Shown here: positions 5,696 through 59,067 of the stretch, piece after piece
How positions within the stretch are numbered: the first letter of the stretch is position 1
How the letters are laid out: the number at the start of each line of letters is the position of its first letter
Assembly (NCBI GenBank): GCA_963727315.1
Contig: CAVSFE010000002.1
Location: 471,723 to 535,722 of the forward strand
Length of the DNA stretch: 64,000 nucleotides
Direction of reading: 5' to 3'
From: an uncultured Chloroflexia bacterium
GTDB taxonomy: Bacteria; Chloroflexota; Dehalococcoidia; Dehalococcoidales; RBG-16-60-22
Notes under the pieces: model-generated
The model's database searches: none
What the model was told of the DNA's origin: nothing
The model's input: the letters and a program-made list of their open reading frames with translations, nothing else
Program-made: the position numbers and the translations under genes

Positions 5696-5790
5696 AAAAA
5701 ACTTAACGATTTCCGGGAACCGATTCGCTTTTCGTTTTTTTATTTTTTATTTTTAATTTTGAAGCTGAGGCGCTTAATTTTATAGCTGAT

Positions 5791-5934
5791 ATTCGTTTTT
5801 CGATTTATGTCAATTCAGCTTCAAAATCCCGTTTATTCGTTTTTCGATTTATGTTAAATCAGGTTCAAAATCCGGGTATTCGTTTTTTAAAGTCCGTCAT
5901 TCGTTTTTAATGTTATGTTAAGCTAGCTAAATCC
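5791..5934. repeat. AT-rich tandem array of degenerate ~43-44 bp units, each beginning ATTCGTTTTT
   Basis: Copies at 5791-5829 and 5835-5873 are near identical (ATTCGTTTTTCGATTTATGT.AA.TCAG.TTCAAAATCC). Shorter or degenerate copies lie at 5878-5895 and 5899-5934. Confidence 0.8.
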
Positions 5935-6002
5935 CCCACTTATACCGCCAATATAAGTTACATTAAAAGCGGTAAGGAAGCAAGAGAATTTTGTCACTAT
6001 TT

Positions 6003-6300
6003 GACCTCACCCCCTACCCCCTCTCCAAACCTTAGATTAATTTAATAGTTTTATATTTTGTTTGGAGAGGGGGATAGCAATTGAGAGGGGCTGGCGCCCC
6101 TCTCGCTGACGCACTCCGTTTAGCGGAACGAAAAAACCTCTCAATCTCCCTTTACGAAAGGGAGAAGCTATATACGTACCCCATTTTCCCTCACCTATGG
6201 ATTCAAGCTTTCGCTAAAATGACAAAACAAGCGAGGTGTTTAAGAGGGGTCACGACCCCTCTTTCTTTTTCTTCCCCCTCTCCGTCGACGGAGAGGGGGA
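6003..6300. repeat. cluster of nested REP/MITE-like hairpins (CCCCTCTCC / GGAGAGGGG family)
   Basis: Inverted repeats: 6017-6030/6060-6073, 6083-6104, 6145-6165, 6242-6263 (followed by a T-run) and 6275-6300. The ACCTCACCCCCT leader at 6003-6014 recurs at 26709 and 38444. Confidence 0.8.
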
Positions 6301-6353
6301 TTAAGGGGGTGAGGTTGAGTCTCAATTCAACACTCGAACGGCATATTACCAGA

Positions 6354-6383
6354 TTGACTTTCCGGGGCGGAAATGGCTAGAAT
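6354..6383 (+). promoter_or_regulatory. candidate sigma70-type promoter for CetZ-like gene 1
   Basis: TTGACT (6354-6359), 18-nt spacer, TAGAAT (6378-6383). GGAGAGG RBS lies just before ATG 6409. Confidence 0.45.
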
Positions 6384-6408
6384 TAAGAAACAACCGGAGA
6401 GGTAAACA

Positions 6409-7584
6409 ATGAAGCTAGTCGTGGTGGGTTTCGGGCAATGCGGCGGCAGGATTGCCGACGAGTTCGCCCGTCTCAATAAAAGGGCGCGCGGCCTGCGCGG
6501 GCTCAACATCATCGCCGGTTCTTACGCGGTCAATACCGACCTCGCCGACCTCAGCGGGCTGCACACCATAAAGTCCAATTTCAGTCAGCGCATCGTCATC
6601 GGCAAGAAAAAGACCGGCGGCCACGGCGTGGGCAAAATCAACGAGCTCGGCGCGGAGATAGCCCGCGAAGACGCCGACATGGTCATCGAGACCATCCGGA
6701 ACACCGAAGACTTCGCCGAAACGGACGCCTTCCTGCTGGTCGCCAGCGCCGGCGGCGGCACCGGCTCCGGGGCGATACCGGTCATGACGCAGCAAATAAA
6801 AGAACGCTACGTCGATAAACCGGTCTATAACCTGATAGTCCTGCCCTTCGAGCACGAGGTCGTCACCGAAGACAGGACCGTCTATAACGTGGCCACCTGC
6901 CTGAAGTCCAGCTACCTCGTAGCCGACGCCATCTTCCTCGTCGATAACCAGCGCTACGTCATGAAAGACTCGTCGCTCACGCACAACCTCGCCAAGATAA
7001 ACACGACCATCGTGCAGCCGTTTTTCAACCTGCTCTGCGCCGGCGAAGAAAAAAAGGCGCAGTACATCGGCGCCAAGATACTCGACGCCGGCGACATCAT
7101 CCAGACGCTGGTGGGCTGGACGACCCTCGGCTACGGGCGGTCAGAGACCTCGATTTTCAAATCGTTCTGGCCGGTGTCGCGCAACTTCCGGGACAAAGCC
7201 CACGAAACGCAAAAGGGCATCCACGCGCTCGACGAGGCCATCAGCGGGCTTTCGATAAAGTGCAATCCGCTGGACTCGAAGCGGGCGCTGTACCTCGTAT
7301 CCGCCCCGGCCGAAGAAATCAACGTCGACCTGATAAAAGAGCTGGGAACATATATCAAGAACATGGCGCCGGAAGCCATCATCAGGAGCGGCGACTATCC
7401 CCGGGAGAAAGGCAACCTGGACGTCACCATCATACTCTCGGAGATGAGCGACGTGGAAAAGGTGAGGAGCTATTTCACCAAGGCCATCAACCTCATCGCG
7501 GAGCTCAAGAAGCGGCAGGAAGGCCTGGTAAGCACGCAGCGGGGCATCGATATCACGATTAAAGATATCCCATCGCTGCTGTAA
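6409..7584 (+). CDS. tubulin/FtsZ-superfamily GTPase, CetZ-like (copy 1)
   Basis: 391 aa. Motifs: GFGQCGGRIADEF, AVNTDLADL, GHGVGKINELGAEIA, tubulin signature GGGTGSG (nt 6751-6771) and T7-like FLVDNQRY. C-terminal tail is KDIPSLL. Confidence 0.8.
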   Translation: MKLVVVGFGQCGGRIADEFARLNKRARGLRGLNIIAGSYAVNTDLADLSGLHTIKSNFSQRIVIGKKKTGGHGVGKINELGAEIAREDADMVIETIRNTEDFAETDAFLLVASAGGGTGSGAIPVMTQQIKERYVDKPVYNLIVLPFEHEVVTEDRTVYNVATCLKSSYLVADAIFLVDNQRYVMKDSSLTHNLAKINTTIVQPFFNLLCAGEEKKAQYIGAKILDAGDIIQTLVGWTTLGYGRSETSIFKSFWPVSRNFRDKAHETQKGIHALDEAISGLSIKCNPLDSKRALYLVSAPAEEINVDLIKELGTYIKNMAPEAIIRSGDYPREKGNLDVTIILSEMSDVEKVRSYFTKAINLIAELKKRQEGLVSTQRGIDITIKDIPSLL

Positions 7585-7640
7585 GACAATCTCAAGTTAG
7601 CGCATTTTCCACCTTAGTGTAAAAAACTATCCTAAAAAAA

Positions 7641-7718
7641 GTCATTCCCGACTAGATTGGGAATCCAGCGCCTTTATTCCCGGCCCGGTCACTGGATTCC
7701 CGCTTTCGCGGGAATGAC
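7641..7718. repeat. double-hairpin REP-like element bounded by GTCATTCCCG...CGGGAATGAC
   Basis: Second copy at 28291-28364. The shared core is TGGATTCCCGCTTTCGCGGGAATGAC. Confidence 0.8.
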
Positions 7719-7748
7719 ATATTGATAATCTATATTTTTACGAAGTAC

Positions 7749-8237
7749 CTATCTGGCAATCTTGGAATAAATCTGCCAGGCCTGCTCGATGGTCTCGTCG
7801 CGGACTTTCCAGGCCTTCTCGACATGCTCGTCACGGACGCGGGTGGCCTCGGCGATAGCGGCGTCGCAGGCGCCGGTGGCCGCTTCGACGGCGACGCGGT
7901 AGGCTTCCTCGGCTTTAGCGATGATGCCCTCGCGGGTCGTGGCGGCCCTGGCCATGGCCTGCTCGCGGTCCTTTAAAGCCTGCGCCACGGTGGCCTCGTA
8001 AGACCGGTGCGACTGCGCTTCCGCCCGTTTATAGGCCTTAGCGACCTGCATCTCGTTCTCGTGGTAAGCCTTGGCGACCTGACGCTCGGCGTCCATATAG
8101 GCGGCATAAGCCCTCTCGGCCTGGCTCATGACCTCATCAAGGGCGCTCTTGGGTCGTTCCCCGGCGGCCGCCTCGGCCCCCTCGGCAGGGACTTCTACTT
8201 CTATCGGTTTTTTAGGTCTGTCTTTCTGGCTAGGCAC
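7749..8237 (-). CDS. hypothetical alpha-helical protein with 11-residue (hendecad) repeats
   Basis: 162 aa. GTG start is preceded by AAGGAGGTG. Repeats include QVAKAYHENEM/QVAKAYKRAEA/QSHRSYEATVA. No family recognised. Confidence 0.65.
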   Translation of the reverse strand: MPSQKDRPKKPIEVEVPAEGAEAAAGERPKSALDEVMSQAERAYAAYMDAERQVAKAYHENEMQVAKAYKRAEAQSHRSYEATVAQALKDREQAMARAATTREGIIAKAEEAYRVAVEAATGACDAAIAEATRVRDEHVEKAWKVRDETIEQAWQIYSKIAR

Positions 8238-8295
8238 CAGACACCTCCTTCAGCTTATCTCAGGTTATTTATTCGAACGTAACGACACAGTGCCA

Positions 8296-8324
8296 AGTAT
8301 ATGGTGCGGTGGGTAAAAAGTCAA
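8296..8324 (-). promoter_or_regulatory. candidate sigma70-type promoter for the 162-aa gene
   Basis: On the minus strand: TTGACT (8319-8324), 17-nt spacer, TATACT (8296-8301). Confidence 0.45.
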
Positions 8325-8350
8325 GCAAATTTCTCTCAGTTTTATGAGGG

Positions 8351-10621
8351 TTAATCCCCATTTTCTTCGGTATCTTCGGCGTCCGCCCCCCTCCTGGCCT
8401 GCTGGTTCCTCTTGGCCTCGTACATCCGGGCCAGAGACTCCAGGCGGGACTCCATCTTACCTTTAGACTCTTTATCAGCTTTTTTATCGGTCTGGCCGGC
8501 CTTTTCCATGGCCTGTTTCATATTCTCGAGGGCGGCTTCAGTGGACTGAAAAGGTCCCGGCTCTTTTTCTTCCGCCTCGTCCCGGGGCCCTTCAGCGCCG
8601 GCAGGTTTTTCGACTTCGGTTATCTCTTCGGACTCTTCATCTTCGCCGGCCAGCGCGCCCTGGTGCAGCGTGGCCTGATAGGCCTTGAGCGATGCCTCGG
8701 CGGTGTCGCGGGCGACCTGGCCGGTGGCCTCGGCGCGGCTGATGGCCTCCCTGAAGGCGGTGATAGAAACGCCGGCCGCCTCCCGGGCCACCCTGGCCGA
8801 GGCTTCGGTCGCCTCCTTGACCGCCTTTACCGTTCTCTCCGCCGATTCCCTGGCGGCTTTAATCAGACTGCCGGTTACCTCCCGGGCGGCCTTCACCGCG
8901 GCCTCGGCGGCTTCCTTGGTCTCGCGGCTCACCTGCTCCGCCCGGGCGATAGCGGCCCGGATTTCCTTCTCCGAAGCCGCGGCGATCTCCATGGCGCTGG
9001 CCTCGGCGATATTGATAGCCTCTTTAACGGTCTTCAGCGATGCCTCCGCCGTCTCCCTGGCCGAAAGGTTCAACTCCTCGGCTTTAGCCACCGCCTCCTC
9101 GGACTGTTTTACGGTCGCCGCAATAGCCTCCCGGGCGGCTTTCGCCGATGCCTCGGCGGTCTTTTTAGCCGCGGCGGCAATCTTTTCCATCCGGGAGACG
9201 GTCTCCCGGAACTCGGCGGACGACGCCTCGACCATCGCCCTGGTCTCCTGGCCGATGGCCTCGGCCCTGGCGATAGCTTCCTTCGATTGCTCGGTCGACT
9301 GCCGCGAGGCCTCCTGAGCGGCCTGAGCGGCATTGGCGGCGGCCTCCTCAGTGGCCTGAGCGGCCGCGGTCACGGCTTCCTGGGTCGCCTTGGCGGACGC
9401 CTCGGCCGACTTGCGGGCGGCCTGGGCGGACGCCTGGGCGACCGCGGCGGCCTCCTTACCCTCTTCCTCCGCCCGGGCGATAGTGGCCTGAATATCGCTA
9501 GCGGTGGCCTCGGCAAGGTCACGGGTCTCCCGGCTGATCTGCTCGGCGCGGGCGACCGCCTCGCGGAACTCATCGGCGGCCAGCGCCGCGCCGGATTTAG
9601 CTTCCTTACCGATGGTCTCCGCCTGGGCCATGGCCTCGCGGGAGGCCTTGACCGACGCCGCCGAGGCTTCCCTGGCCATTTTTACGGCGGCTTCCGTTAT
9701 CGCCTTCGTCTCCTCGACGATATCCTCGGCCCGGCGCATCGTTTCCTGGGCAGCTTTTTGCAGGGTATCGGTGAACAGCCTGGCCTCACGCTGGCTGGCT
9801 TCAATCTTGTTCAACGTCTCCTGGGACGACCTCTGGGCGGCATCGGCGACCTCGCGGGCGACCTTGCTGATGGTCTCCGAGCGGGTAGCCGCTTCCTCCG
9901 CCGCCTTGGCCGAGAGGTCGGCCGCCTCGCGGGTCGATTTGCTCGCCCGCTCCGCCCGGACGACGGTTTCCTTGGCGGCTTTATTGGCGGCATCGGCGGC
10001 CTCCTTGGCTTCACGAGCCAGCCGGTCCGCCCGGAGGGCCGCATCCCGGGTAGCCTTAATGGATTCTTCGGCGGCTTCCCTGGCGGTCTTGACGGTCGCC
10101 TCGGCCAGGCTGACCGCCTCCTCCGACGCCTCGCGGGCGGAATCCGACGTCTTTTTCGCCTCGCGGCTGAGCTCGTCGATGCGGCCCAGCCCTTCCTGGG
10201 ACAACATCAGCGCCGACTCCGCGGCGTGCATCGCCTCGGAGGTAGACTTTTCGGCGCGGGCGATGGCTTCCTCGAAGACCTTAGTCATCGACTCCGTGGT
10301 CTCTTTGGGCCGGCGGGCGACTTCCTCCGCCCGGCTGATGGCTTCGCGGGCGGCCTGAATGGCGGCCTCGGCGGACTCCCTGGCCTCGCGGCTGATCTGC
10401 TCGGCGCGGGTGACGGCATCCTGGGCGGCCTTAGCGGCGGCCTCGGCGGCCTCCTTGGCCTCCCGGCCTATCTGCTCCGCCCGGAGGGCCGCTTCCACAG
10501 CGGTCCTGGTCGATATCCCGGCGGCCTGCCGAGCCGCCCGGCTCAAGGCCTCCGCCCTGGCGACCGCCTTCTCAAAGTCGCTGGTATTCTTATCAACGCC
10601 CTGGCTGGTGTCAGGAGACAT
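8351..10621 (-). CDS. hypothetical 756-aa Ala/Glu/Arg/Lys-rich repeat protein (predicted long helical/coiled-coil rod with acidic C-terminal tail)
   Basis: ATG is preceded by GGAGGA. Repeat domain runs about aa 22-654 (nt 8660-10558) in a 25-residue register anchored on RAE. The + strand ORFs here are Gly/Leu/Arg-rich shadows. Confidence 0.75.
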   Translation of the reverse strand: MSPDTSQGVDKNTSDFEKAVARAEALSRAARQAAGISTRTAVEAALRAEQIGREAKEAAEAAAKAAQDAVTRAEQISREARESAEAAIQAAREAISRAEEVARRPKETTESMTKVFEEAIARAEKSTSEAMHAAESALMLSQEGLGRIDELSREAKKTSDSAREASEEAVSLAEATVKTAREAAEESIKATRDAALRADRLAREAKEAADAANKAAKETVVRAERASKSTREAADLSAKAAEEAATRSETISKVAREVADAAQRSSQETLNKIEASQREARLFTDTLQKAAQETMRRAEDIVEETKAITEAAVKMAREASAASVKASREAMAQAETIGKEAKSGAALAADEFREAVARAEQISRETRDLAEATASDIQATIARAEEEGKEAAAVAQASAQAARKSAEASAKATQEAVTAAAQATEEAAANAAQAAQEASRQSTEQSKEAIARAEAIGQETRAMVEASSAEFRETVSRMEKIAAAAKKTAEASAKAAREAIAATVKQSEEAVAKAEELNLSARETAEASLKTVKEAINIAEASAMEIAAASEKEIRAAIARAEQVSRETKEAAEAAVKAAREVTGSLIKAARESAERTVKAVKEATEASARVAREAAGVSITAFREAISRAEATGQVARDTAEASLKAYQATLHQGALAGEDEESEEITEVEKPAGAEGPRDEAEEKEPGPFQSTEAALENMKQAMEKAGQTDKKADKESKGKMESRLESLARMYEAKRNQQARRGADAEDTEENGD

Positions 10622-10653
10622 TAATCATCCTCCCCGATAAATGACGCCCCCCT

Positions 10654-10682
10654 ATTATATTATTCAATCCCCAGTTTTTCAA
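10654..10682 (-). promoter_or_regulatory. candidate sigma70-type promoter for the 756-aa gene
   Basis: On the minus strand: TTGAAA (10677-10682), 17-nt spacer, TATAAT (10654-10659). A 7-5-7 inverted repeat GGATTTT/AAAATCC lies at 10693-10711, just upstream. Confidence 0.5.
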
Positions 10683-10776
10683 CAAAGCGGCGGGATTTTC
10701 CTGAAAAATCCGCTATCTCCCAACGTGACGCATTTGACAGTACCAAAATATATTACATAAGTCACGGAACTAAAGA

Positions 10777-10805
10777 TTGACATTGCAAGCTAATTATGTT
10801 AAAAA
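10777..10805 (+). promoter_or_regulatory. possible promoter for CetZ-like gene 2
   Basis: TTGACA (10777-10782), 17-nt spacer, TAAAAA (10800-10805). The -10 element is weak. Confidence 0.3.
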
Positions 10806-10846
10806 TAGCTTAAGGTCATCAGGATTTTTTATCATCGAGGTGCAAG

Positions 10847-12021
10847 ATGAAATTAGTAGTTGTCGGTCTGGGTCAATGCGGCGGTAGAATCGCCGACGAG
10901 TTCGCCCGACTCAACTCGAGAGCCCACAGCAGGCGCGGCATGAACATCGTCACCGGCTGCTTCGCGGTCAATACGGACGCCGCCGACCTGAGCGGGCTAT
11001 CCGCCATATCCAACGACCACCGCCACCGCATCCTCATCGGGAGCCGCAAGACCGGCGGTCACGGCGTCGGCAAAATCAACGAGCTCGGCGCCGAAATCGC
11101 CAAGGAAGACGCGGACAAAATCGTCGACGCCATCAGGGCGACGAAGCGGTTCTTCGAGACGGACGCCTTCCTGCTCATCGCCGGCTCGGCGGGCGGTACC
11201 GGCTCCGGCGCCATCCCCATCGTCACGCAGCACCTGAAAGAGCGCTACATCGATAAGCCGATATGGAACCTCATCGTCCTCCCCTTCGAACACGAAGAGA
11301 CCACGGAAGAAAGGACCACCTTCAACGTCGCCACCTGCCTCAAGTCCTGCTACTCCATCGCCGACGCCGTCTTCCTCGTCGATAACCAGCGGTACGTCAG
11401 GAAAGACTCCTCGCTCCAGGCCAACCTCGCCAAGATAAACTCCATGATTTCCGAGCCGTTCTACAACCTGCTCTGCGCGGGTGAAGAAAAGAAGTCCAGG
11501 TACATCGGCGCCAAGCTGCTCGACGCCGGGGACATCATCCAGACAGTGGTCGGCTGGACAGTCATCGGCTACGGCAAGACGCAGGCGCCCCTGTTCAAAA
11601 TGCCCCTCGAACTGAGGAAAGATTTCCGCAAGAAGGGCCAAGAAATCCAGAAGGGCATCCAGGCGATGGACGAGGCCATCAGCGAGCTATCGCTCAAGTG
11701 CAATCCCGCCGATTCCCGCAGGGCATTATACCTGGTCTCCGGCCCGGCCAAGGAAATGAACATGGACATGGTCAAGGAAATCGGGGACTACATGCGGGAC
11801 ATCGCGCCCGAGGCCATTATCCGCAACGGCGACTACCCGCGAGAGAGGGGGTCGTGGACGTGACGGTACTACTCTCCGAGCTCAGCGACGTAGAGAAAGT
11901 GCGCGACTACTACCTGAAATCGACCGACCTCATCCCGGAGTTCAAGAAGCGGCAGGAAGAGACGGAGGACAAGCTCCGGGAGCTGGACGAGGTTGCAAAA
12001 GACATTCCGTCGCTGCTGTAG
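10847..12021 (+). pseudogene. tubulin/FtsZ-superfamily GTPase, CetZ-like (copy 2); reading frame broken as assembled at a G-run
   Basis: Same motifs as copy 1 (GLGQCGGRIADEF, AGGTGSG, FLVDNQRY). Frame 10847-11863 joins frame 11698-12021 if the G5 run at 11847-11851 is G6. Tail again ends KDIPSLL. Confidence 0.8.
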
Positions 12022-12042
12022 AAAACAAAAATCAGGGCGTTT

Positions 12043-12072
12043 AAGAGGGGCTGAAAAGCCCCTCTTTCTTTT
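12043..12072 (+). terminator. rho-independent terminator after CetZ-like gene 2
   Basis: AAGAGGGGCT-GAAA-AGCCCCTCTT stem-loop followed by TCTTTT. Confidence 0.6.
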
Positions 12073-12201: not shown

Positions 12202-13867
12202 ATGCCTTCACAGGTTTTTTATAGAAAGTGGCGCCCTCAATCGCTCGTCGAGTTCGTCGGGCAGGAGCACGTCACCCACACCCTGCTCAACGCCCTTGCG
12301 ACCGAGCGCGTCTCGCACGCCTACCTTTTCTGCGGGCCGCGGGGGACGGGCAAGACGACCACCGCCCGCAACCTCGCCAAAGCCATCAACTGCCTCACCA
12401 ACGGCAAGGGCGAGCCCTGCAATAAGTGCTCGATGTGCGTGGCCATCACCGAAGGGCGGGCTTTAGATGTCATCGAGGTGGACGCCGCCAGCAACCGCGG
12501 CATCGATGAAATCAGAAATCTAAGAGAAAAGGTCAACTACGCCCCCAACGAAGCGCGCCGCAAGGTCTACATCATCGACGAGGTCCACATGCTCACCAAG
12601 GAAGCGTCGAACGCCCTGCTCAAGACGCTGGAGGAGCCCCCGCCGCACGTCGTCTTCATCCTGTGCCACCACCGAACCCCACAAGCTCCTGCCGACCATC
12701 CTGTCGCGCTGCCAGCGCTTCGATTTCCACCGCTACTCCCTGGCCAACATGGTGACAGTGCTGTCCCGCGTCTGCGAAGGGGAAGGCATTCACATCGAGG
12801 CGGAGGGGCTAAAGCTCATCGCCCGGGCGGCCACCGGCAGCCTGCGCGACGCCCTCAACCTGTTACAGCAAGCCAACACGTACTACGGCAGCGAAATCAA
12901 CCTCGCCCAGGTGCAGGCCCTCCTCGGCATTACCGGCGACCAGCGCGCCAAAGAAGTGGTCAGGCACATCGTCAAACGGGACGCCAGCGCCGGCATCACC
13001 ACCATCAACAACGTCAACAGCGACGGGCTCGACCTGCGCCAGTTCCACCGCGAGCTGGTGGAATACCTGCGCCGGCTGCTCATCGTCAAGACCGGCTCCA
13101 GCGACTCCATCGAGCTGACCGCCGAGGACATCAAAGAACTCAAAGAACTGGCCGCCAAAACGCCGCTGCCGGTTATTATCAAAGCCATCAAGCGTTTCGG
13201 ACAGCTCGAACTCAGCCTGGACAACTATTCCACCCTGCCCCTGGAGCTGGCCCTGGTAGACTGCACGATAACCGAGCCGGAAGACAAGGCACCGTCCGCC
13301 CGCCAGGCCGAAACCGAACCGACCGGCCGACAGGCGACGCCCAGATATAACCCGCCGCCAGCCCGGCCCAAAACCACGCCTCAACCCGCAGAAAAAAGCA
13401 TCCGCGAACCGCCGGCCGACAAGCCAGCGGCGGCCGAGAAACCCATTACCACAGCCGCCGAAAAACCAGTCCCGGTAACCGCGGAGAAACCGGCACCTCC
13501 GACGGCGGCTAAAACCGAGGCCGGTCCATCGGCGGTAGTCGGCACCATCGAGCAACTGCAGCAGCAATGGAGCAAGATTATTAACGATGCGCCCGACGGC
13601 ATGAGCAAGACCCCGGCGGCCGCCCTGCTCCGCTCCGCCCGACCTAAAGAAATAACGGACAACGTCCTGATAGTATCGTTTAGATATCCGATGCACAAGG
13701 ACAATATGGAGAAGCTGGAAAACCAGAAAATGGCCGAAAAAATCGTCAGCAAATTCATGGGCCGCGCCTGCCGGGTGCGCTGCGTCTACGAGCACGAGAA
13801 CAACCACCTGGTACAGGAAGCTATTAATAATTACGGAGCGCAACGGATGAACACGGAGGAGACATGA
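12202..13867 (+). pseudogene. dnaX: DNA polymerase III subunit gamma/tau; frameshifted as assembled near 12664
   Basis: Walker A GPRGTGKTT and IIDEVHML are in the first frame. ATTEPHKLLPTILSRCQRFDF follows in the next frame after an extra base at about 12664. The second frame runs to 13867. Confidence 0.85.
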
Positions 13868-17161: not shown

Positions 17162-17213
17162 AGGGATATATCTATTATAGGTGATATGCGTCAGAAAAAG
17201 AAAATACCCGGCA

Positions 17214-18347
17214 TTATCTCCCCTTTTCCCCGCCGTCTATTTGAGTCGTTTTCACTTTCAGTCCCCGCGCCGAGAAGAACCCCGCCAGCGTGATGCCCGC
17301 CCCCACGTACATCAGCGTCGCATATCCCCAGGCCTCGGAGACCGCGCCGCCCAGGAAAGGCCCCAGGACGCCGGAGACGGCGTTGGCGGAGTTCATCAGG
17401 CCGGCCGTGGTGCCGTACTCCGGGTGATGTCTCAGGAGATAGCTCAGGGCCCCGACGAACATGCTGGAATAGGCTAAAGCCAGGAACAGCTGCACCGGTA
17501 TGAGCTGCCAGTACCGCGTCAGCAGTCCGTAGACGACGAAGACGGCCGCCGAAAGGAGCAGTCCCGCCTGGAACATCCTGGCCGGGTTGAACTTCTCGAT
17601 GTAGCGCATCGCCACGATTTGCCCGACCATGTTGGTCACCTCGACGAGGGCAATCCAGAGCTTGCTGGCGCCGATGCTGGCCTGGTAGAGCGGCCAGATG
17701 GTCCAGATGGCGTTGCCCCCCAGCTGCCTGAGGAAAAAGCCGAGATATACTTTGTAGTCTGCCTTTATCAGCGCCGCCGGGAACCTGGCTACCTGCATAT
17801 GACTGGTGGCTTTTTCCACGAGTAGTAAAGATATCAGGAAAGCCAGGAAAGCCACGATGGCGCTGATAATGAACAGCGCCGTGTAGTCTTTGACGATGGC
17901 CGCGGTCACCGCGCCGATGAGCCATCCCAGCGCCCCGTAAGAGATGAAGCTGCCTATCTGCCGCTGGTTCTCGTAGGTGTAGGCCATGATGACCGATGAG
18001 TTGATGCCGAGGGCGAAGCCTATCGACGCGCGGGCGGCCAGCAGCGCCATCGGGTTGTGGGCGATGATCTGGGTGAGGTAGGCCAGCGCCGTGAGCCCGA
18101 GCCCGGCGCGGATGTATTTCATCCTGCCGTGAATATCGGACAGCCGACCAAAAAATAGCGATGAGGCGAAAAAAGCGATGCCGCCGGCGGCGGCGATAAA
18201 GCCCACCTGCAAATTCGTGGCACCGATGTCCTTGGCGTAAAGTGCGATGAAAACGTTGGAGGTGTCGACGGCGCAGTTGGAAAGCAGGTTGATGGCTGCC
18301 AGGCATAGTGGTATCGAGACCCAGGCCGGGGGAGAGAAACGCCGCAT
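17214..18347 (-). CDS. MFS transporter
   Basis: 377 aa, multi-TM, with the FGRLSDIHGR loop motif typical of MFS. Confidence 0.8.
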   Translation of the reverse strand: MRRFSPPAWVSIPLCLAAINLLSNCAVDTSNVFIALYAKDIGATNLQVGFIAAAGGIAFFASSLFFGRLSDIHGRMKYIRAGLGLTALAYLTQIIAHNPMALLAARASIGFALGINSSVIMAYTYENQRQIGSFISYGALGWLIGAVTAAIVKDYTALFIISAIVAFLAFLISLLLVEKATSHMQVARFPAALIKADYKVYLGFFLRQLGGNAIWTIWPLYQASIGASKLWIALVEVTNMVGQIVAMRYIEKFNPARMFQAGLLLSAAVFVVYGLLTRYWQLIPVQLFLALAYSSMFVGALSYLLRHHPEYGTTAGLMNSANAVSGVLGPFLGGAVSEAWGYATLMYVGAGITLAGFFSARGLKVKTTQIDGGEKGR

Positions 18348-23754: not shown

Positions 23755-25244
<1,490 letters not shown>

Positions 25245-25342
25245 TTATTGGCACCTGTCCAGATTAAGCGTGTTATGACTAATTATATGTTATCCGTGCT
25301 TTATGGTAAAGGGGGAAATGACAGGTTGAGGTTTAAACAAAC

Positions 25343-26708: not shown

Positions 26709-26866
26709 ACCTCACCCCCTATATCCCTTTCAGGGTGAATCCCTTCAGGGTGAACCCCTCTCCGTTGACGGAGAGGGGGAGGATTTATGGAAGAGGGGCT
26801 GACGCCCTTCAGGGTGAACCTTCACTTCGTGGTGACCTCAGTGGAACCAGGATGAACCCCTCTTAG
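26709..26866. repeat. composite REP/MITE-like element cluster
   Basis: ACCTCACCCCCT leader, CCCTTCAGGGTGAA modules, CCCCTCTCCGTTGACGGAGAGGGG hairpin, and a 74-bp unit (26791-26864) with AAGAGGGG/CCCCTCTT termini. Confidence 0.85.
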
Positions 26867-28371: not shown

Positions 28372-29550
28372 TTAGTCTCTCTGTCCCAGTATCGTCACGG
28401 AGCCGATGCCGCTGCCGGGGTTCATGCCGAAGTTGTGAGTGAGGCCAAGTCTGGGGTTCTTACGCTGGCGGGGACCGGCCTTGCCCTGCATCTGCTTATA
28501 GATTTCATAAATCATCCTCAGGCCGCTGGCGCCGATGGGATGCCCGAAGCTCTTGAGTCCGCCATCGGGATTGACCGCCAGCTGGCCGTCGAGTTTGAAC
28601 GTGCCAGCCCTAACATACTCCGGGGCTTTACCGCGCGGGCAGAAGCCCAGGTCTTCCATGATGACCAGCTCGGTGATGCTGAAGCAGTCGTGCACCTCGG
28701 CCAGGTCTATTTCTTTAAACGGGTCTTTAATCCCCGCCATGGCGTAAGCCTGCTTCGCGGCGCGTACCGTTTCCTCCATGTGCACCATGTCGTACGACGG
28801 CTGCAAATAGCCCTGCCGCGCGCCGACGGCAAGTCCAAGTCCCTTAACGAGAATATAATCGTCGCGGAAATTTTTCGCCATATCCGCCCGGCAGACAATA
28901 GCCGCCGCCGAGCCGTCGCTGACGCCGCAGGCGTCATAGAGTCCCAGCGGCCAGGAGACCATCGGGGCATTAATCGCCATTTCCTCGGTGATTTCCCTCT
29001 GGAAATGCGCGCGGGGGTTCAACGAGCCGTTATGGTGGTTCTTGACGGATATTTTCGCCAGGGTCTGCTTCAGCTCTTCGTAGGTCAGACCATAATGCGC
29101 CATGTAGCGCGTCGCCATGCGGGCGAAGAACATCGCGGCCGACATGCCCCACTCCATCGTGCCGTCGCCGCCGGCGCCGCTGACCGTGCCCAGGCCGCCC
29201 ATACCCTGGTCCTTGAGCTTCTCCACCCCGATAGCCATCACGACATCATAGACACCGGAGGCGATGCCGAAGCAGGCGTTGCGCAGGGCCTCGGTGGCGG
29301 TAGCGCAGAGGTTTTCCACGCGGGTCACGGGGATATACTCGGTCTTGAGGGCCGCGGCGCAGGGCTCGGCGGTATTGATGCGCGTCGAGCCAAACCACAC
29401 CGCCTGAATATCCTTCATCTCAATACCGGAGTCCTCACAGGCCTCGGAGGCGGAATCCACGAGCATATCGTCGGCGCTCTTTTCCCAGTTTTCACCGAAC
29501 TTGGTGCAACCCATGCCGACGATAGCGACCTTATTTTTAATGCTCTCCAT
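28372..29550 (-). CDS. thiolase-domain protein (archaeal/SCP-x-type acetyl-CoA acetyltransferase-like)
   Basis: 392 aa. VAIVGMGCTKFG start, Cys in ENLCATATEAL, and a C-terminal GHPIGASG / NPGSG region. Confidence 0.8.
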   Translation of the reverse strand: MESIKNKVAIVGMGCTKFGENWEKSADDMLVDSASEACEDSGIEMKDIQAVWFGSTRINTAEPCAAALKTEYIPVTRVENLCATATEALRNACFGIASGVYDVVMAIGVEKLKDQGMGGLGTVSGAGGDGTMEWGMSAAMFFARMATRYMAHYGLTYEELKQTLAKISVKNHHNGSLNPRAHFQREITEEMAINAPMVSWPLGLYDACGVSDGSAAAIVCRADMAKNFRDDYILVKGLGLAVGARQGYLQPSYDMVHMEETVRAAKQAYAMAGIKDPFKEIDLAEVHDCFSITELVIMEDLGFCPRGKAPEYVRAGTFKLDGQLAVNPDGGLKSFGHPIGASGLRMIYEIYKQMQGKAGPRQRKNPRLGLTHNFGMNPGSGIGSVTILGQRD

Positions 29551-30939
29551 CTATTTCTCCTCCTTTCCCAGCCAGTTTGAACGGGGAGGCATACAGCGCC
29601 AGAAATAGTTGTGAATGCCACCGCCCACGCCCAGCGTACGGAAGCTCATCACGACATCCATGCCCACTTTCACCTTATCGGCAATCATATCCGTCATGCC
29701 GAAAAGCGCCCGCCCGCCCCCGTCGAAGTCCACCATCGTGTCCACGCCGGGTCGGGCGAAAGCCGGGATATCGGCGCCGTGCTTTAAAGTAAAGGTAAAG
29801 ACCCTGCCCTTTTTATCGGCGAAGGAGTAAGGCTCGAAGTTATCTTTAGTATGGCAATTGGTGCAGATGCGCTGCGGGGGATACTGGACGGTGCCGCAGG
29901 TAAGGCACTTAACGCCGCGCAGGGCATAGATGGCGTCCCGCTCCCGGGCGATGACGGAAGCCGAAGCCCCGGCGAACCGCTCGGGGTCGGACGCAGCGAA
30001 CTCCCTAAACGCGGCGTATTCGCCCTGACCCCGCATCGGCATTTTAGAAGTCAGACTCCGCTTCATGCCCCATTTACCGGCGATATTCTTTATCTTATCC
30101 GTTACCTTTAAAAGCAGGACATCGGCGCCATCGCCGTAGCTGGCCACCAGGATTTTATCGCTGGGTTTAGCGTCTTCCAGGGCCGCCACGAGCATCATCG
30201 GCACAAACGCCGTGCCGGTATTGCCGAGCTTATCAAAGAACGGCTCCTGCACCTGCTCCGGCTTAAACCCCAGAGCGCCGACCAGCTGACGATGGCGACG
30301 CAAGTCGGGACCGTACAAAACGGTTTTAGTTATGTTCGGCACGGCAAGACCGGACTTTTCGAAAAAGTGCTTAATCGCCTGCGGCAATATTTTCAGATAG
30401 CCTTCTTCAAAGACAAAGCGGTCTTCCCAGGAGCGGACGTTTTTGGCGCCGCTGGCGCGCCAGACATCAAGCAACTCGTTAGAAAGCGAGTAGCCGCCCT
30501 CTATCGTAGCGATGACGTCTTTATCGCCGATGACAAACGCCGCCGCGCCGTCGGCGAAGTCGCCGCCCATGCGCAAATCTGAAGCGGTGACCAGGACGTT
30601 TTTCGCCGACCCCGCCCCGACGGCGTCCGCCGCCATCTTCAAAGCCCCCGTCCCTGCCCGCAAAGAGTCGGCGACGTCCGCCGTCAAAATATCGCGGGGG
30701 AGGTCGAGAGCCCAGGCGGCGGTGGTCGCTGCCAGCTTTTCGGCATAGGGCGGGGTGGTGGACGCAAAATAAAGCCCATCGATTGTTTTCCTGTCAAGGC
30801 TCCCCAGGCAATCTATAGCCGCCGCCACAGCCATCGTCAGGCTGTCCTCGTCCCAGTTCGCCACCGCTTTTTCCGTCTGGGGGCCGGTGCTCAGGCGGCG
30901 AAGGGGAACATAAGCGCCGCAGGATGTAATGCCAATCAT
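29551..30939 (-). CDS. HMG-CoA-synthase-like condensing-enzyme domain fused to a DUF35 Zn-ribbon/OB-fold domain
   Basis: ATG 30939 with an AAGGAG RBS (the TTG at 30969 is less likely). N-terminal MIGITSCGAYVP... resembles HMGCS/KASIII. The C-terminus CLTCGTVQYPPQRICTNCH...VFTFT resembles DUF35. Confidence 0.65.
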   Translation of the reverse strand: MIGITSCGAYVPLRRLSTGPQTEKAVANWDEDSLTMAVAAAIDCLGSLDRKTIDGLYFASTTPPYAEKLAATTAAWALDLPRDILTADVADSLRAGTGALKMAADAVGAGSAKNVLVTASDLRMGGDFADGAAAFVIGDKDVIATIEGGYSLSNELLDVWRASGAKNVRSWEDRFVFEEGYLKILPQAIKHFFEKSGLAVPNITKTVLYGPDLRRHRQLVGALGFKPEQVQEPFFDKLGNTGTAFVPMMLVAALEDAKPSDKILVASYGDGADVLLLKVTDKIKNIAGKWGMKRSLTSKMPMRGQGEYAAFREFAASDPERFAGASASVIARERDAIYALRGVKCLTCGTVQYPPQRICTNCHTKDNFEPYSFADKKGRVFTFTLKHGADIPAFARPGVDTMVDFDGGGRALFGMTDMIADKVKVGMDVVMSFRTLGVGGGIHNYFWRCMPPRSNWLGKEEK

Positions 30940-31065
30940 GGGCTCCTTTCTGATGGAGTAATCAACCAAGGGATTTTTTGTTCCGACCTAGTTTAAGTCT
31001 CGGTGCTTTGCGTTGTCAAAAAGTGCTATAATCTTTTAGCTATTTTCGGATATAAGGAGGCCACG

Positions 31066-38418: not shown

Positions 38419-38443
38419 AACGCCTCCTTTATTTATTTAGTAC

Positions 38444-38541
38444 CTCACCCCCTTGGTCCCCCTCTCCTGTCCGCAGGAGAGGGGGAGGGGAAAAGAGAGG
38501 GGCTTCGCCCTTCAGGGTGAGCCTTCAGGATGAACCCCTCT
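38444..38541. repeat. REP/MITE-like element cluster (same family as 26709-26866)
   Basis: ACCTCACCCCCT leader, CCCTCTCCTGTCCGCAGGAGAGGG hairpin, and GGGGCTTCGCCCTTCAGGGTGAGCCTTCAGGATGAACCCCTCTT. Confidence 0.8.
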
Positions 38542-56374: not shown

Positions 56375-58194
<1,820 letters not shown>

Positions 58195-58212
58195 AGAGAC
58201 CTCACAAACAAT

Positions 58213-59067
58213 TTATTCTAACGCCACTACGCCTCCGATAATATCCAGGAGGTCGCGGGTGATGGCCTCCTGCCGGGCTTTATTATACAAAAGCGTTAAA
58301 TCGCCGATAAGCTCATTGGCGCTGTCGGTGGCGTTGCGCATCGCCACCATACGGGCGGACTGCTCGCTGGCGATGGACTCCAGAATAGCGTGATAGATTT
58401 CCATCTCCACGAAGCGCGGCAGCAGACCACCCAGCACCGACGTAGCGCCGGGCTCGTAAATATAGTCGACGTTTTCGGCGCGGGGTATCTTCGCCGGATG
58501 GACGGGCAGAAGCTGCTTCATGGCCGGCTTCTGCACCATCGTCGAAACAAACTGGGCGTAAGATATATAGACATCGTCGATTTTACCGGCGGTGTACTCT
58601 TCGATAACAATACGGGAAATGGGGAGGATATCCAGGAAGCGGGGCTGGTCGCCGAGGCCGATGAACTCGGCACACATCGAGCAACTGGCGCGGGTAACGA
58701 ACTCCCTGCCCTTGCGCCCGACGGCGACCACTTCGACGGGGACTTTCTGCTCGAGGATAAAGCCGGCCAGACGCCGATTAAGGTTAGCGTTGAGTCCGCC
58801 GCAGAGTCCGCGGTCGGGGGTGATATGGACCACGGCGATTTTCTTAACAGGGCGGCGCTGCAAGAGCGGGTGCTGCAGGCCGATATCCGGCAGGGCGGCC
58901 AGGGCGGCGATGACCTGCTCGATTTTTTGCGAGTAAGGCCGTCCCTGCAAACCGCGCTCCTGGGCCTTGCGCATCTTGGAAGCGGCGATCATCTCCATGG
59001 CGCGGGTAATCTTGGAGATATTACGGACGCCCCTGATGCGGCGGCGGACTTTACGAATATCAGGCAT
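58213..59067 (-). CDS. atpG: F1 ATP synthase subunit gamma
   Basis: 284 aa. N-terminal IRRRIRGVRNISKITRAMEMIAASKMRKAQ and C-terminal ITRDLLDIIGG. Confidence 0.93.
   Translation of the reverse strand: MPDIRKVRRRIRGVRNISKITRAMEMIAASKMRKAQERGLQGRPYSQKIEQVIAALAALPDIGLQHPLLQRRPVKKIAVVHITPDRGLCGGLNANLNRRLAGFILEQKVPVEVVAVGRKGREFVTRASCSMCAEFIGLGDQPRFLDILPISRIVIEEYTAGKIDDVYISYAQFVSTMVQKPAMKQLLPVHPAKIPRAENVDYIYEPGATSVLGGLLPRFVEMEIYHAILESIASEQSARMVAMRNATDSANELIGDLTLLYNKARQEAITRDLLDIIGGVVALE

Follow-up and report, generated by a model that had tools for sequence, protein, structure and literature searches.

Specialists in the tubulin-superfamily CetZ proteins call the family archaea-specific in the abstracts of their papers, and the CetZ survey PMC9856176 covered archaea only. 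A 64,000-nt stretch of DNA from an uncultured bacterium of the Dehalococcoidia (Chloroflexota; contig CAVSFE010000002.1, positions 471,723 to 535,722), hereafter the window, raises the question of what two tubulin-like genes, here named cetA and cetB, are doing in a bacterial chromosome on either side of two genes for helical repeat proteins, cc162 and cc756. We found that both GTPases are CetZ-like, and are not canonical FtsZ, TubZ/PhuZ or BtubAB, and that the four genes recur together in relatives. The initial annotation, made from the letters and an open reading frame (ORF) list, had placed two tubulin-like ORFs on the plus strand and two helical-repeat ORFs on the minus strand, and ORF listing of the window confirmed all four:

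6409..7584, plus strand: cetA, CetZ-like tubulin-superfamily GTPase, 391 aa, intact; T1 GQCGG, T4 GGGTGSG, T6 N180, T7 D226/D229; C-terminal end a long helix at residues 350-386, then terminal KDIPSLL
7749..8237, minus strand: cc162, 162 aa, GTG start, no known family; basis ORF, third-position substitutions and ortholog alignment
8351..10621, minus strand: cc756, 756 aa, coiled-coil repeats, no known family; basis ORF and third-position substitutions
10847..12021, plus strand: cetB, second CetZ-like GTPase, split by a 1-nt frameshift; 391 aa ending in KDIPSLL once one G is restored

The block lies in a bacterial context between gap, on the cetA side, and dnaX-ybaB-recR, on the cetB side, just as had been noted; eno is also among the neighbours. 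Its base composition is ordinary relative to the window.

Identity of the two GTPases

The two GTPases align over 391 aa without a gap and are 67% identical and 83% similar when cetB is restored. The two-thirds identity estimated by eye was therefore accurate, but the second gene had been taken as one continuous frame and its frameshift missed. Both proteins matched Pfam Tubulin (PF00091) with an E value of about 1e-32, and both exceeded the gathering cutoff of CetZ_C (PF21011; cutoff 21.6), with 66.3 bits for cetA and 46.1 bits for the truncated cetB ORF. FtsZ_C was not among the Pfam matches of either, and both failed the ftsZ equivalog model (NCBIfam TIGR00065), scoring 60-64 bits against a cutoff of 295.

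Closeness to CetZ was judged by a sequence search of all PDB sequences and by a Foldseek search with the predicted fold of cetA. The best sequence match was Haloferax volcanii CetZ1 (4b46; E 7e-44, over residues 1-362), followed by CetZ2 (4b45; 1e-30) and the CetZ of M. thermophila (3zid; 8.5e-16). FtsZ appeared from 1e-12 on, and tubulins with BtubA/B from 1e-8 to 1e-4, BtubA/B itself reaching only 1e-6 to 2e-5; the match to PhuZ in PHROGs was marginal (E 0.0095). The AlphaFold2 model of cetA (predicted local distance difference test score, pLDDT, 90.8; predicted template modelling score, pTM, 0.89) gave the same three CetZ structures at the top, with CetZ1 first (TM 0.93, root-mean-square deviation 1.9 A, identity ~31%), then CetZ2 and 3zid, and FtsZ structures after them. 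Domain, sequence and fold matches thus agree on a tubulin/CetZ rather than an FtsZ pattern, as the motifs had suggested, and the predicted distance from the TubZRC, BtubAB and FtsZ modules held up: by profile scores and best matches, the GTPases do not nest within FtsZ or TubZ/PhuZ.

The motifs were then compared across 72 cetA and 54 cetB orthologs. GQCGG (T1), GHGVGKINELGAEIA, GGTGSG (T4), LVDNQRY, LDAGDIIQT and the terminal KDIPSLL are at least 90% conserved, and the annotated motifs GQCGGRIADEF, AVNTD, GHGVGKINELGAEIA and GGTGSG are all present and conserved in these orthologs. FLVDNQRY had been read as a T7-like motif; alignment with FtsZ IPNDKLL and CetZ1 LVFDND places LVDNQRY in the S6/T6 segment, with its base-contacting Asn. 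The true T7 loop is LDAGD (D226, D229), within LDAGDIIQT, and it is conserved in both paralogs, indicating that both retain the catalytic residues.

Resemblance to archaeal CetZ (4B46, 4B45, 3ZID) extends to the tubulin-like T1 (GQxGG) and T4 (GGTGSG), the CetZ_C domain, a long helix at the C-terminus with a short tail motif behind it, and the occurrence of paralog pairs. In contrast to archaeal CetZ, the host here is a bacterium, cetA and cetB branch as a separate clade that excludes the archaeal CetZ sampled, identity to CetZ1 is low, and the genes are fixed in a block of four together with genes for two dedicated helical-repeat proteins, an arrangement not reported for archaeal cetZ neighbourhoods. 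At E <= 1e-3 the databases contain over 6000 relatives of the GTPases under varying names: IMG calls some 'tubulin-like protein CetZ', and NCBI mostly uses FtsZ.

The GTPases themselves are not new to the literature. Santana-Molina et al. 2023 (PMC9871819) devoted two sentences, in the part of the paper available, to Chloroflexota-Dehalococcoidia proteins of CetZ-like type that a CetZ_C hidden Markov model (HMM) detects at about 1e-10, and described such proteins as 'sparse paraphyletic groups' that are 'CetZ-like' and outside canonical CetZ; these are evidently the same protein group as cetA and cetB. The same part of that paper gives no account of the paralog pair, the partner genes, the gap...dnaX locus or a function, and our literature search found no description of the pair, its partners or the conserved locus. 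The word 'undescribed' in the initial annotation consequently holds for the module and its partners, but not for the CetZ-like proteins, which are in PMC9871819 and carry the CetZ name in IMG. The paralog pair, partner genes and conserved four-gene module appear to be new.

Separately, CetZ-like proteins ~32% identical to cetA (P0155 and its cluster) were seen in metagenome-assembled genomes (MAGs) of Nitrososphaerales (Thaumarchaeota), outside Euryarchaeota, the usual home of CetZ.

Partner proteins cc162 and cc756

Substitutions relative to orthologs, counted in the minus-strand frames, fall mainly on third codon positions: 4130 for cc756, with 1271 and 1765 at the other positions, and 2132 for cc162, with 571 and 824. 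This pile-up shows that cc162 and cc756 are real genes on the minus strand, where their frames are under purifying selection, and public gene calls pick the same frames. Several reading frames are open across cc756, and a 653-aa Gly/Leu/Arg-rich ORF (8663-10624, plus strand) runs antisense to the gene. By its codon-position substitution pattern this ORF is no gene; it is an artefact of Ala/Glu-rich codon usage that could mislead gene callers.

Both proteins are rich in Ala, Glu, Arg and Lys and periodic, in keeping with the initial description, with a lag of 11 in cc162 and of 25 in cc756. In cc756, lag 25 dominates self-similarity, with sub-peaks at 11 and 36, and it is the top lag in 57/57 orthologs, whose lengths range from 517 to 911 aa. 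The repeat consensus, AQEAISRAEEISREAKEAAEASAKA, has 25 residues, equal to three heptads plus a 4-residue stutter, with small or hydrophobic residues spaced 3-4-3-4 around an Ala-rich core. About 18 copies were recognised by HMM between residues of about 16 and 655, and they are followed by a linker, a conserved helix KMExRLESLARMYExK (KMEARLESLARMYEAK) and an acidic tail. This architecture recalls crescentin and FilP/Scy, which are long rods of regular coiled coil with stutters and non-helical ends. Unlike those proteins, cc756 has a 25-residue repeat with an Ala-rich core, no sequence relationship to them was detected, and the association of such a protein with tubulin-like genes is peculiar to this block.

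The smaller partner, cc162, begins with a variable, acidic, disordered N-terminus (about residues 1-30), followed by a conserved all-helical domain of 11-residue repeats that ends in ETIEQAWQIYSKIAR, with invariant Tyr and Trp positions. Its single-sequence AlphaFold2 model has two long helices, 29-74 and 77-161. Foldseek matched this model best to Vipp1/PspA/ESCRT-III helical hairpins, but with E > 0.3 the matches lack significance and no relationship is claimed.

Neither cc162 nor cc756 gave anything significant in Pfam, NCBIfam, PHROGs or PDB sequences, the last searched with a profile of cc162; on these searches the two appear to belong to new families. Orthologs were found by tblastn on the fetched loci. 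Searches of sequence databases with the two proteins returned only chimeric fragments or histidine kinases, though orthologs are called on the same contigs; because the word index and composition filter limit such searches, these poor returns are not evidence of absence.

Conservation of the block

Among genomes sampled at one per species, 162 cetA relatives were identified, and gene order was taken from the best 78 loci. These come from Dehalococcoidia or Chloroflexota MAGs, except for two contigs binned elsewhere (Syntrophaceae and Gemmatimonadales). The order cetA(+), cc162(-), cc756(-), cetB(+) was found in 50/78 loci, usually between gap and dnaX-ybaB-recR, and another 22/78 are cut by a contig edge and compatible with the same order. 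Identity of cetA across the loci runs from 97% down to 71%; the partners evolve faster, at 41-87% for cc162 and 37-73% for cc756.

A reciprocal test started from cc162 on JGI metagenome contigs. Where the contig left room, a CetZ-like gene was adjacent in 56/57 loci and cc756 in 49/49. The helical-protein genes are thus tightly co-conserved with the GTPases, seen from either side.

In a neighbor-joining tree, cetA and cetB form separate clades (bootstrap 93% and 90%) that are sisters at 81%. This reciprocal monophyly indicates that the duplication predates the radiation of the lineage. The Dehalococcoidia proteins cluster with further CetZ-like representatives (bootstrap 58%) and separately from CetZ1/CetZ2, with the deep nodes unsupported. 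The block is chromosomal, vertically inherited and ancestral to a whole clade within the Dehalococcoidia, and to call it 'inserted' between gap and dnaX, as had been done, wrongly implied a recent arrival.

Some loci show other arrangements nearby. Among the 57 cc162 homologs with room, L138 73-2280 is the only one without a downstream CetZ-like gene, and other small helical proteins follow it. In L079 14089-17176 and L080 14069-17176, cetB is followed by at least 6 tandem paralogs of ~190 aa in place of dnaX, which match PEMT/ICMT-type membrane methyltransferase families. A more distant Dehalococcoidia CetZ-like gene, 51% identical (L082 842-3623 and L083 2264-4996; cluster of 269 members), adjoins a gene for a phage terminase large subunit.

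The frameshift in cetB

The 1175 nt of cetB (10847-12021) are not a single ORF: the gene reads from 10847 to 11863 and then, in another frame, from 11698 to 12021. The break is a 1-nt deletion in a G5 run at 11846-11850, and one added G gives the 391-aa protein. Taken at face value, this deletion could mean that the module is decaying in this strain and that cetB is either a pseudogene or depends on programmed frameshifting for its expression. We consider this very unlikely. Every complete cetB ortholog (54/54) is intact at about 391 aa, and the frame downstream of the break is still conserved, with 88% over the last 69 residues relative to the restored sequence.

The same window also holds breaks in essential genes. 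The dnaX gene (12202-13867) is frameshifted near 12655, inside the ATPase domain, where frame 1 ends ...PPPHVVFIL and frame 2 continues with ATTEPHKLLPTILSRCQRFDF; this is not the programmed gamma/tau site, and the break is probably an assembly indel. The atpD gene (F1 beta subunit; 56784-58250, minus strand) is split at the Walker A region near 57.85 kb, with its N-terminal ~170 residues in another frame, a third unprogrammed frameshift in the window. Because the relatives are intact and dnaX and atpD are frameshifted as well, the cetB break is most likely an assembly error and not the mark of a pseudogene. Further frameshifts may exist at 17191-18347 and 24375-25254, where pairs of ORFs overlap.

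Regulatory signals

Sigma70-like sites are more frequent than expected (7 observed; 2.1 +/- 1.2 expected), and four of them lie directly upstream of the four genes, consistent with the earlier assignment of a promoter candidate to each gene. The signals are as follows:

6354..6383, plus strand: cetA promoter candidate, sigma70-like (TTGACT-18-TAGAAT), ending 26 nt before the cetA start codon
7641..7717, no strand: long hairpin with an A-run before and a U-run after; candidate bidirectional terminator for convergent cetA/cc162
8296..8324, minus strand: cc162 promoter candidate, sigma70-like (TTGACT-17-TATACT)
10654..10682, minus strand: cc756 promoter, sigma70-like (TTGAAA-17-TATAAT, 11/12 matches), kept in relatives
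10777..10806, plus strand: cetB promoter, sigma70-like, divergent from the cc756 promoter; TTGACA -35 and extended -10 (TGCTAAAAAT) kept in relatives
12043..12066, plus strand: terminator-like hairpin 3' of cetB (AAGAGGGGCTGAAAAGCCCCTCTT, then a T-run)

Two of the four promoters, the divergent pair of cc756 and cetB, are thus kept in relatives. The hairpin between cetA and cc162 has a minimum free energy of -44.4 kcal/mol for 7580-7755 (z -3.5).

The gap-cetA spacer is unusually long here at 713 bp; in relatives it measures about 135 to 1050 bp. It contains three direct 44-nt AT-rich repeats (5790-5941), shared only with the closest relative, L002. A centromere role for these repeats was ruled out, as they are not conserved along with the module. 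An Rfam scan of the spacer returned only spurious microRNA-hairpin matches.

Proposed function and competing explanations

The block is probably a bacterial cytoskeleton that has not been studied before. In the reading with the best support, which draws on Haloferax CetZ1 and CetZ2 as analogues and on a lead in Dehalococcoides mccartyi, it would encode CetZ-like filaments driven by GTP, together with a coiled-coil scaffold, that act on cell shape or envelope organisation; we judge this proposal to be about evenly poised between right and wrong. According to published abstracts, CetZ1 and CetZ2 govern the disc-to-rod morphology switch of Haloferax. A proteomic study of D. mccartyi BTF08 (PMC8163811) compares disc-shaped cells from pure culture with barrel-shaped cells from co-culture: the tubulin/FtsZ GTPase btf_0551 and btf_0548, a hypothetical protein encoded nearby, are abundant in the discs and low or undetected in the barrels. 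The strain has a separate FtsZ, btf_0595.

We infer that both GTPases, with their T7 catalytic aspartates kept, would bind GTP and polymerise head-to-tail into protofilaments. The products of cetA and cetB could co-assemble into mixed polymers or form one polymer each, the two having distinct or even antagonistic tasks, as reported for Haloferax CetZ1 and CetZ2. The invariant C-terminal KDIPSLL at the end of the long helix may dock the filaments onto a partner, which could be cc162 and cc756 or a membrane tether whose gene lies outside the block; with such a docking-type peptide on both GTPases, the description of the system as 'self-contained' went too far. A rod of roughly 95 nm, as predicted for cc756, might cross-link, space or scaffold the filaments beneath the membrane. 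In this way the system would control the form of the cell or the organisation of its envelope; cultured relatives of these bacteria are discs without a wall. A bolder version, in which a CetZ-based cortical cytoskeleton of two co-operating polymers and a ~95-nm coiled-coil ruler or cross-linker is the main shape determinant in wall-less Dehalococcoidia, is possible, though we regard it as doubtful.

Several observations weigh against the proposed shape-control system or its four-gene form. In 4/78 loci cc162 is missing, in 2/78 a single cetB-type gene stands between gap and dnaX, and the more distant gene of 51% identity has no cc neighbours; such distant genes, together with lineages that have no cc162 or only one GTPase, show that the four-gene form is not obligatory. 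The branching order relative to archaeal CetZ has no deep-node support. The D. mccartyi proteins, which may or may not be orthologs of this module, give only a correlative lead, and in PMC8163811 the proteomic change also took in canonical FtsZ. No canonical ftsZ was found in the window or the fetched loci, which is uninformative for the whole genome. Finally, the tail motif D-I-P-x-hydrophobic-L resembles the C-terminal peptide of bacterial FtsZ (DYLDIPAFLRKQAD).

It is this last resemblance that makes cell division the main rival. Here the CetZ-like pair would be an accessory or alternative division machinery, working at the septum like FtsZ paralogs, with the FtsZ-type tail tethered to FtsA or SepF and with cc756 and cc162 as Zap/EzrA-like coiled-coil bundlers. 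The invariant KDIPSLL, set beside the FtsZ core DIPAFL as a short conserved docking peptide of similar pattern, fits division equally well. Bacterial FtsZ with ZapA/ZapB, EzrA and SepF is, like this block, a tubulin-superfamily polymer with coiled-coil partners, such regulators being typical of FtsZ; many sources annotate cetA/cetB-type proteins as FtsZ; and the D. mccartyi tubulin-like protein shifted in abundance along with FtsZ (PMC8163811). Yet similar tails are widespread among CetZ-like representatives generally, the closest relatives are CetZ proteins, which are reported to be dispensable for division in Haloferax, and PMC8163811 reports a separate FtsZ in D. mccartyi. The T1 and T4 motifs are of the tubulin type, FtsZ_C is not matched, the ftsZ equivalog fails by a wide gap (60 vs 295 bits), and profile searches relate cc162 and cc756 to none of the Zap, EzrA or SepF families. 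Neither the block nor its neighbourhood contains dcw, ftsA, ftsQ, mur or sepF genes. On this evidence we hold a division role to be unlikely, though a serious contender.

A role in segregating or positioning the chromosome or nucleoid, with TubZRC/PhuZ-like filaments that push or pull DNA, would explain why the block is kept beside dnaX, ybaB and recR. PMC9871819 proposes CetZ or archaeal FtsZ as the origin of TubZ, the window has direct 44-nt repeats ahead of cetA, and TubZRC/PhuZ and BtubAB-BtubC are likewise non-FtsZ bacterial tubulin-superfamily systems with dedicated partner genes, BtubAB being a paralog pair as cetA/cetB is. In contrast to those systems, this block has no TubR-like DNA-binding gene, centromere or BtubC; similarity to their GTPases is much weaker than to CetZ, the PhuZ match being marginal; and the upstream repeats are confined to this genome and its closest relative, in a spacer of varying length. 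The locus is also chromosomal, clade-wide and housekeeping-like, not plasmid-borne, phage-borne or recently transferred. We consider segregation highly improbable.

The shape-control proposal aside, the block represents a large, strongly conserved bacterial branch of a family regarded as archaeal, with obligate-looking partner proteins such as no archaeal CetZ is known to have. It is relevant to the binding partners of CetZ filaments and to the passage of the tubulin superfamily from one domain of life to another, and it offers a handle on what gives wall-less Dehalococcoidia, among them Dehalococcoides, an organism of bioremediation, their disc shape. If the cortical-cytoskeleton version were true, it would be the first known case of bacterial morphogenesis that relies on the tubulin superfamily, not on MreB with peptidoglycan. 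It would also be evidence that Archaea and Chloroflexota either exchanged CetZ systems in ancient times or share them by common descent, and its coiled-coil component would come from a protein family seen nowhere else. The size of all four proteins suits immediate in vitro and heterologous tests.

Other observations in the window

A dispersed G/C-rich palindromic element (CCCCCTCTCC...GGAGAGGGGG; AGAGGGG-N-CCCCTCT hairpins) occurs between genes in this genome and its relatives. Copies in the window lie at 6004-6315, 12044-12065, 26755-26798 and 38442-38502, and the element is present at many positions in the relatives' loci L007, L009, L038, L122 and L132. It looks like a repetitive extragenic palindromic (REP) sequence or a miniature inverted-repeat transposable element (MITE), and some copies double as terminator-like hairpins.

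At 28372-30969 (minus strand), a thiolase gene adjoins a gene resembling archaeal-type HMG-CoA synthase (174 bits, under its cutoff). The two genes side by side are reminiscent of the thiolase/HMGCS pair of archaea, in this case in a bacterial genome.

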